A stretch of 63,946 nucleotides of DNA, counting the filler, from Rozella allomycis CSF55 (taxonomy: Eukaryota), in the NCBI GenBank assembly GCA_000442015.1. It is 13 parts of 12 records of this genome, joined end to end, with 100 filler letters (N's around TTAATTAATTAA, not from the genome) between each part and the next. Parts side by side here need not be neighbours in the genome. Positions count along the whole stretch, not along the records: positions 34,659 to 46,808 come from KE560799.1; 12 more parts are not named here. One strand, written 5' to 3'. The notes beneath the pieces were generated by a model that saw only the letters and a program-made list of their open reading frames with translations, did no database searches and was not told the DNA's origin. The position numbers and the translations under genes were made by a program. This document shows, piece by piece, positions 36,723 to 37,868 of this stretch. Position 1 is the stretch's first letter. Each line of letters begins with the position of its first letter.

Positions 36723-37868
36723 ATGTCAGATCAAGGCTTAAATCCCTCCAAAAACCCAGTAATATTGTGCACTGCCGGATATGACCACACTATTCGATTC
36801 TGGGAAGCCCTTAGTGGCATGTGCATACACACCGTACAGCATCCAGAAAGTCAAGTCAATTCTCTAGCGATTTCACCAGACAAAAGGTTTGTAATTGCGG
36901 CAGGTACAACTTTAAATTTTCATTTTTAAAAGGAAACCCTCATATCAGAATGTATGACATTACCCAGAGCGCGACATCAGGCCCAGTAAAGCATATTGCT
37001 ATTTATATAATCGGTGCAAGTATTTGAAGGGCATTCGGGAAATGTTACTTCAGTTGGATTTCAAAGAGACGGTCGATGGCTATTTTCTGGATCAGAAGAC
37101 GGAACACTAAAAATTTGGGATTTTAGGTAAACGAATGTTTTCTAATGTATATCGAACACCAAAATGCCAACGAGATTATGAACATAAAGGCCCCGTCAAT
37201 CATACTGTTCTTCATCCTAACCAAGGAGAGCTAATATCGTGTGATCAACTTGGAAGTATTAAAATATGGGATTTGGCCGGAAATGCATGCACCCATGAAT
37301 TAGTAATTTTATTGCACTTTCCACAATTTGGTACCAGAAGAAGATGTGTCTGTTAATTGCGTTTCTGTAGCTTCGGATGGAAGTTTTTTGGTAGCCGCTA
37401 ATAATCATGTAATTGGTGACATTTATTGATAATTTAAAAGGGATATTGCTTTGTATGGAAAATGTCGAATGGCCAAGATTCAACAGACCTACAGCCGATT
37501 ACAAGAATACATGCGCATGACACTTATGTGACTAAATGTGTCTTGTCACCAGACGTGAAGTAGCTCAAACTTTCCATTTTGATTTAGAAAACTAGCGACT
37601 TCTTCTGCGGATGGCACTATAAAGATTTGGGCAACGGACTCTTTTCTACACGAAAAAACGCTGGTGGGCCATCAGAAATGGGTTTGGGATTGCTCTTTTT
37701 CAGCTGATTCAGTTTATTTAATATCAGGTAACTATTGGCACATTGTCTTATGTAGCATCATCAGACCAAACAGCACGTCTATGGGATCTACAAACGGGAG
37801 ATACAATCAGACAATACGTTGGACATAACAAAGCATTAACTTGTGTCGCTCTAAATGATTTGCCTTAA
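36723..37868 (+). CDS. LST8: TOR complex subunit LST8 (WD40), 7 introns of 28-32 nt
   Basis: [44 protein letters not shown] and [15 protein letters not shown]. Introns at 36904-36932, 36986-37013, 37127-37154, 37303-37330, 37409-37440, 37560-37587 and 37728-37755. Confidence 0.95.
36986..37013 (+). other. 28-nt GT-CG intron (LST8 intron 2)
   Basis: cca|gtaaagcatattgctatttatataatcg|gtg caa gta ttt gaa ggg cat gives P-VQVFEGH. The next AG (+7) is out of frame. Confidence 0.82.
37127..37154 (+). other. 28-nt GT-CG intron (LST8 intron 3)
   Basis: ag|gtaaacgaatgttttctaatgtatatcg|a aca cca aaa gives [14 protein letters not shown]. No AG within the segment. Confidence 0.82.
37303..37330 (+). other. 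28-nt GT-TG intron (LST8 intron 4)
   Basis: tta|gtaattttattgcactttccacaatttg|gta cca gaa gaa gat gives CTHEL-VPEED. Downstream AGs are out of frame. Confidence 0.82.

Follow-up and report, generated by a model that had tools for sequence, protein, structure and literature searches.

How an intron that lacks a terminal AG could be removed is the question raised by the LST8 gene of Rozella allomycis CSF55 (Rozellomycota), which encodes a seven-blade WD40 subunit of the TOR complex. We examined a window of 63,946 nucleotides (nt) of nuclear DNA from this strain, the whole stretch analyzed here, which is a draft scaffold with gaps, containing 1089 N in short runs, some of them inside open reading frames (ORFs). 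LST8 occupies positions 36723..37868 on the plus strand, from an ATG at 36723 to a TAA that ends at 37868, and its eight exons encode 314 residues once spliced. Three of its seven introns, and one intron of a kinesin gene located 17 kb away, appear to end in CG or TG. Our reading, to which we assign a probability of roughly 0.7 from the DNA and its homologies, is that these four segments are ordinary U2-type tiny introns in which TCG or TTG would replace the HAG 3′ end, the requirement at the penultimate position (−2) being relaxed.

The LST8 gene and its seven introns

For LST8 to be read in a single frame, seven short segments (28-32 nt) must be removed, four of which are bounded by GT and AG, and three by GTAA and CG, CG or TG. 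The canonical introns are intron 1 (36904..36932, 29 nt, GTAC..AAAAG), intron 5 (37409..37440, 32 nt, ending in AAAAG), intron 6 (37560..37587, 28 nt, ending in TTTAG) and intron 7 (37728..37755, 28 nt, ending in TGTAG). The remaining three are consecutive and each 28 nt long. Intron 2 (36986..37013) runs from GTAAAG to AATCG, intron 3 (37127..37154) from GTAAAC to TATCG, with an in-frame TAA at its donor, and intron 4 (37303..37330) from GTAATT to ATTTG; their −2 bases are C at 37012, C at 37153 and T at 37329, respectively. Removal of all seven introns leaves 945 nt, corresponding to 314 residues and a stop codon. The exons contain neither stop codon nor frameshift and are conserved to the same degree as the neighboring genes.

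Comparison of the spliced protein with eight fungal LST8 proteins shows that it aligns with them from end to end, with zero gaps at the three non-AG junctions. Its best match among solved structures is the Lst8 chain 5fvm_C, in which residues 107-154 correspond to residues 2-49 of exon 4, and residues 156-179 to residues 2-25 of exon 5. Since exon 4 ends at residue 154 and the second residue of exon 5 falls at 156, the chain runs on across junction 4 without losing or gaining a residue. In 5fvm_C the repeat before this one closes with "...vwdv" at residue 104, so that junction 3 is placed with the same precision. In addition, exon 3, which is located between two non-AG introns, covers a whole WD40 repeat by itself (PF00400, profile positions 4-39 of 39, E 2.7e-14) and must therefore be present in the LST8 mRNA.

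The introns were also placed with a protein-to-DNA aligner that can set them anywhere. It was run without an end rule, with GT required at the donor and any 3′ end allowed, or with GT-AG forced, the latter two against three of the homologues. Without an end rule, the aligner found seven LST8 introns in the same places, and when only the GT donor was required it returned exactly the three 28-nt introns from two of the three homologues; the third gave 31 nt for intron 2 and 22 nt for intron 3. When GT-AG was forced, the scores fell from 1008 to 885, from 904 to 786 and from 918 to 790, and the alignment crossed stop codons. Exhaustive junction scans likewise yielded frame-keeping GT-AG candidates that were either 1-16 nt long or far lower scoring (768-1063 compared with 1156 at junction 2, and 1597-1767 compared with 1940 at junction 4), and at junction 3 they revealed no close-scoring AG-ending candidate of at least 15 nt. 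At junctions 3 and 4 the only equal-scoring placements are shifted ones whose end pairs match no known type, and every well-scoring placement of intron 2 is noncanonical.

A peptide search with exon 4 retrieved the deposited model of this gene, P0029 ("WD repeat-containing protein wat1 [Rozella allomycis CSF55]", 279 residues), at 100% identity over 69% of the query. P0029 translates introns 2 and 3 (20 residues) and skips most of exon 3 together with the end of exon 4, leaving it 35 residues short of the spliced LST8 protein, with two WD40 blades broken. Two other genes of the window also match deposited proteins of the strain, Rpt3 (P0126, 99%) and the kinesin (P0391, 100%).

These results agree with the sequence-only reading of LST8 in its particulars. 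It had held that three 28-nt segments running from GTAA to AATCG, TATCG and TTTG need to be removed, as the gap-free alignment bears out, and that no AG lies at a frame-restoring position of comparable length, which the junction scans and the forced GT-AG runs uphold for introns with a GT donor. The DNA itself reads as it described the other four introns (28-32 nt, GT-AG, between intact exons) and the C, C and T at the three −2 positions. Its label of the protein as fungal Lst8 was likewise right, and the alignment to fungal Lst8 that it proposed is ungapped at all three junctions.

A kinesin intron and the census across the window

The fourth non-AG intron is intron 1 of a KIF12-like kinesin gene (19154-21000). 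It spans 19345..19371 on the plus strand (27 nt, GTAATT..CACTCG), with C at 19370 as its −2 base. Its removal restores the conserved VVVRIRP motif (IRVVV-R-IRPMN), as supported by both homologues that extend this far, in which the matching segments are IRVVIRARPMN and VRVVVRVRPLN; removal of 24 or 30 nt would break the VVVRxRP spacing. The first AG past the donor is 50 nt away, and its use deletes 10 residues, including the RxRP motif. The deposited model P0391 uses this AG and is without the conserved RxRP. As judged from the DNA, both P0029 and P0391 are mis-spliced at the non-AG introns.

Eight kinesin introns were checked and only intron 1 is non-AG. The gene also harbors the sole checked intron with a GTT donor (19608-19635, plus strand, GTTAGA..GAAG), the other 38 having GTA. 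At 19977-20006 (plus strand) lies a 30-nt GT-AG segment that is in frame and stop-free; the public model translates it into 10 residues that are absent from three homologues, and it is possibly an intron that is retained or used optionally.

The census of introns covered every gene of the window with obtainable homologues or a solved relative, and comprises 39 homology-checked introns in nine genes. Beyond LST8 and the kinesin, these are Rpt3 (44020-45350, minus strand; five introns of 26-28 nt), V-ATPase subunit d (two introns), V-ATPase subunit D (four), RagA/Gtr1 (four), a TBC-domain GTPase-activating protein (seven), E2F (one checked) and RCC1 (one checked), in all of which the introns are GT-AG. 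Ten extra introns in RCC1, PGA_cap and HAD-like genes, placed by ORF logic and repeat spacing only, are GT-AG as well. Overall, 35 of the checked introns end in AG, three in CG and one in TG, corresponding to a non-AG fraction of 10% (95% interval 4-24%).

The checked introns are 26-32 nt long, most often 26, 28 or 29 nt, with a mean GC content of 0.28. Their donors begin with G (39), T (39) and A (38), followed by A in 26 cases. Every one of the 39 closes with G, while the −2 base is A in 35, C in three and T in one, and the −3 base is T in 19, A in 15, C in five and G in none. The four non-AG introns share a GTAA donor, a length of 27, 28, 28 and 28 nt (against 26-32 nt in the 35 canonical introns) and T at −3 (TCG, TCG, TTG, TCG). 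That the LST8 trio combines the GTAA donor with the modal length of the confirmed introns of this genome is more than would be expected by chance. At the canonical 3′ sites, AAG is as frequent as TAG (15 and 15 of 35), GAG never occurs, and no pyrimidine tract precedes the site; this pattern is unusual for fungi.

U2-type donors have GT and then a purine-rich consensus that pairs with U1 and U6, to which the GTAA of all four non-AG introns and the GTA of 38 of the 39 checked introns conform. U12-type introns carry an RTATCCTT donor and a TCCTTRAC branch site. Neither is present in the four non-AG introns, whose donors are GTAAAG, GTAAAC, GTAATT and GTAATT and which contain no such branch word. 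Whereas the branch-point adenosine of U2-type introns lies in a YNYURAY-like motif, the words judged by eye at 4-10 nt from the 3′ end of the checked introns are loose and TTRAY- or CACAAT-like. When folded with their flanks, the four have minimum free energies of −1.8 to −3.8 kcal/mol, with z scores of +0.26 to +1.61 relative to shuffled sequences, and two canonical introns behave alike. Folding no better than that of shuffled sequences argues against structure-guided excision.

Searches for further cases by ORF-joining scans and codon-usage chain models were too noisy, with decoy donors yielding nearly as many "introns" as real ones; indeed, the codon-usage chain model missed the known LST8 non-AG introns at the penalty applied. 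Candidates in VMA8 and RPT3 proved to be shadows of canonical introns. Re-checking 26 AG-only "introns" of at least 33 nt with a GTA donor identified two with a stop-free, YG-ending alternative of 24-32 nt. One of these is kinesin intron 1. The other (30637, minus strand) falls within the retrotransposon region and also has a canonical 29-nt alternative. A metagenome scan for relatives returned 32 loci; the six that were aligned have a GC content of 0.47-0.55 and gaps relative to the query mostly of 52-200 nt, one being 24 nt. No close Rozella relative is found among these six, and they thus provide no comparative test of the non-AG sites.

The window harbors several other features. The V-ATPase D gene has a tRNA-Glu(TTC) gene on either side (37909-37980 and 39022-39093, minus strand); the Rfam scores of the two are identical, the first starts about 40 nt past the LST8 stop codon, and a tRNA-Gln(TTG) gene is located at 22763-22834 on the plus strand. 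A retroelement at about 27900-32250 (plus strand) encodes a reverse transcriptase (PF00078, E 1.4e-18) and an RNase H (PF00075, E 6.6e-19). Its GC content of 0.40-0.42 is above that of its surroundings, it has a strong negative GC skew, and related fragments appear to be repeated near 23.1-23.8 kb and 25.7-27.3 kb. Two paralogous F-box genes on the minus strand (42850-43878 and 57702-58055) have a similar N terminus; the former continues into ankyrin repeats (Pfam) and the latter runs into N.

Weighing the explanations

Several observations weigh against the reading of the four segments as U2-type introns with a relaxed −2 position. Non-AG ends are concentrated in LST8, where they are consecutive (3 of 7, compared with 1 of 32 elsewhere; Fisher p = 0.014), a pattern not predicted by relaxation across the whole genome. 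The machinery also retains a preference for AG, which closes 35 of the 39 introns. Intron 2 has ambiguous ends, which the protein does not uniquely fix because the residues beside junction 2 are weakly conserved: AT..AG at 36993-37020 and a 31-nt GT..TG segment score about as well as GT..CG. A homology-free scan of the window for GTAA..CG/TG segments of 26-29 nt gave a weak excess, 15 compared with 8.0 expected from decoy donors. Two further candidates did not hold: the one in E2F (18400-18372, ..TTCG) is really a canonical intron at 18411-18383, and for the one in RCC1 (22077-22102, ..CCTG) a canonical intron at 22070-22098 is better and keeps the repeat spacing. No column-wise branch-point consensus emerged over the last 14 positions of the checked introns. 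Finally, one RNA run, which covers almost none of the region (share 0.00), yielded on 34900-46000 only three contig pieces of 33-37 nt, in a conserved AAA-ATPase region, and no joints.

The sequence-only reading had gone further and proposed that this organism tolerates a (T)YG acceptor in which only the final G is kept. The form of that proposal fits the kinesin intron, the invariant final G and the TCG, TCG, TTG and TCG of the four exceptions. The frequency implied by LST8 did not carry over: at 4 of 39, non-AG ends make up about 1 in 10 introns and not 3 in 7, with AG clearly preferred and the exceptions clustered as noted.

One alternative is that the public GT-AG models are right, or that these gene copies are poorly spliced or decaying, with short proteins or none being made and the CG and TG ends representing dead acceptors. 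The deposited P0029 and P0391 indeed avoid the non-AG sites, three of the four non-AG introns are clustered in LST8, and the Microsporidia, relatives of Rozella, have lost the TOR pathway. We nonetheless consider this improbable, as P0029 reads intron as protein, lacks 35 residues and has broken blades, P0391 is without RxRP, and RagA, a partner in the TOR pathway, is intact in the window with its four canonical introns. Moreover, decay would not strike only −2 positions (three substitutions placed at random in the 1146-nt LST8 gene would all land on its seven −2 positions with a probability of 1.4e-7), and the LST8 exons are intact and conserved like their neighbors. Errors of base calling or assembly that changed AG to CG or TG at four places are somewhat less probable still. 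The draft state of the scaffold, with its many N, lends itself to such an explanation, but it needs four substitutions exactly at −2 (three A-to-C changes and one A-to-T), with none seen to disrupt the 945-nt LST8 coding sequence, and the deposited models, which derive from the same sequence, indicate that the annotators likewise met no AG there.

It is also conceivable, though we think it very unlikely, that the segments are removed in some other way, either through other end pairs or by structure-guided excision of the euglenid, IRE1 or tRNA type. The equal-scoring AT..AG placement of intron 2 is compatible with the former, but LST8 introns 3 and 4 and kinesin intron 1 permit no AG-ending placement, and all four non-AG introns have the genome-standard GTAA donor and length and fold no better than shuffled sequences. 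We favor splicing of the four segments as U2-type tiny introns.

A relaxed 3′ splice site and its context

The non-AG introns have the GTAA donor and the length in common with the canonical ones, and their first cleavage should accordingly be carried out by the same machinery. The shortness of the introns suggests that the branch point would be no more than about 10 nt from the 3′ end, and the 3′ site might then be picked mainly by position and by its final G, with A at −2 preferred and not required. In solved spliceosomes the final G of the intron pairs with its first G. A likely cause of the relaxation would be weak proofreading at the second step, through putative loss or divergence of fidelity factors of the Prp18 and Slu7 type.

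The GT-AG rule is loosened in several other settings, including the tunicates Oikopleura and Fritillaria, the nonconventional introns of euglenids and the AG-independent acceptors of C. elegans mutants. Most of these depart from the rule at the donor or at both ends, or need structure or a strong U2AF site, whereas in Rozella the change is confined to −2 of the acceptor and no structure is seen. The introns of Paramecium and of chlorarachniophyte nucleomorphs (18-30 nt) resemble those of Rozella in being short and of tight length, but are not known to have ends other than AG.

The closest parallel is found in Saccharomyces cerevisiae lacking Prp18, in which, in the passages of Roy et al. 2023 (PMC10711555) used here, C/G/U-G 3′ sites are activated, with a preference for those that follow U-rich sequence and lie close to the branch point. 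As in Rozella, the sites described there end in BG with the final G kept, and AAG is tolerated too; in contrast, they are low-level alternative sites in a mutant, whereas the Rozella sites would be the sole productive ones of conserved genes, in a wild organism and in introns of 27-28 nt. The invariant final G, the frequent AAG and the roughly 10% of YG ends after T make the Rozella pattern look like a natural version of this Prp18-less relaxed state. According to another study (PMC10158995), Slu7 is dispensable if the branch point is at most 9 nt from the 3′ site, and Prp18-Slu7 is missing from spliceosomes that are highly reduced, for example in C. merolae. Alternative GT..TG 3′ splice sites used by the major spliceosome are described for 36 human genes by Szafranski et al. 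2007 (PMC2374985); these are U2-type like those of Rozella, but they are alternative sites, while the Rozella sites have no AG nearby and are predominantly CG.

For R. allomycis itself, an intron density of 2.5 per kb is given (PMC8476143), and the passages of Whelan et al. 2019 (PMC6349667) considered here describe introns of about 30 nt without the 5′ and branch-point motifs of E. cuniculi. These concern the same lineage, and non-AG ends go unmentioned in those passages. Non-AG splicing in Rozella was not found in the literature searched, a search outside which the genome paper (doi 10.1016/j.cub.2013.06.057) and supplementary files fell, and the search retrieved no paper on Rozella together with Prp18, Slu7 or U2AF.

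More tentatively, and with somewhat less than even confidence, we propose that R. allomycis has a natural low-fidelity second splicing step, in which the 3′ site would be set by branch-point distance and the final G. About one in ten introns genome-wide, and hence hundreds, would end in TCG or TTG and be spliced constitutively. The organism would represent a wild-type counterpart of the yeast prp18 deletion, probably linked to loss or change of Prp18, Slu7 or Prp8 elements in the direction of the reduced microsporidian spliceosome, and many public models would be corrupted. We place limited weight on the genome-wide rate, given the clustering in LST8 and the weak homology-free excess.

The terminal AG is among the most constant signals of eukaryotic genes, and how it is checked by Prp18, Slu7, Prp22 and Prp8 is an active question. 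If our reading is true, a free-standing organism that routinely uses CG and TG would offer a natural experiment on the AG check, in a lineage that sits on the branch leading to the Microsporidia with their reduced spliceosome. Gene finders restricted to GT-AG would give wrong proteins here, and studies of the Rozella proteome, on TOR loss or intron evolution for example, would inherit these errors. Should RNA confirm it, intron ends in this organism would be read unusually loosely, and the public gene models would be wrong at these sites.
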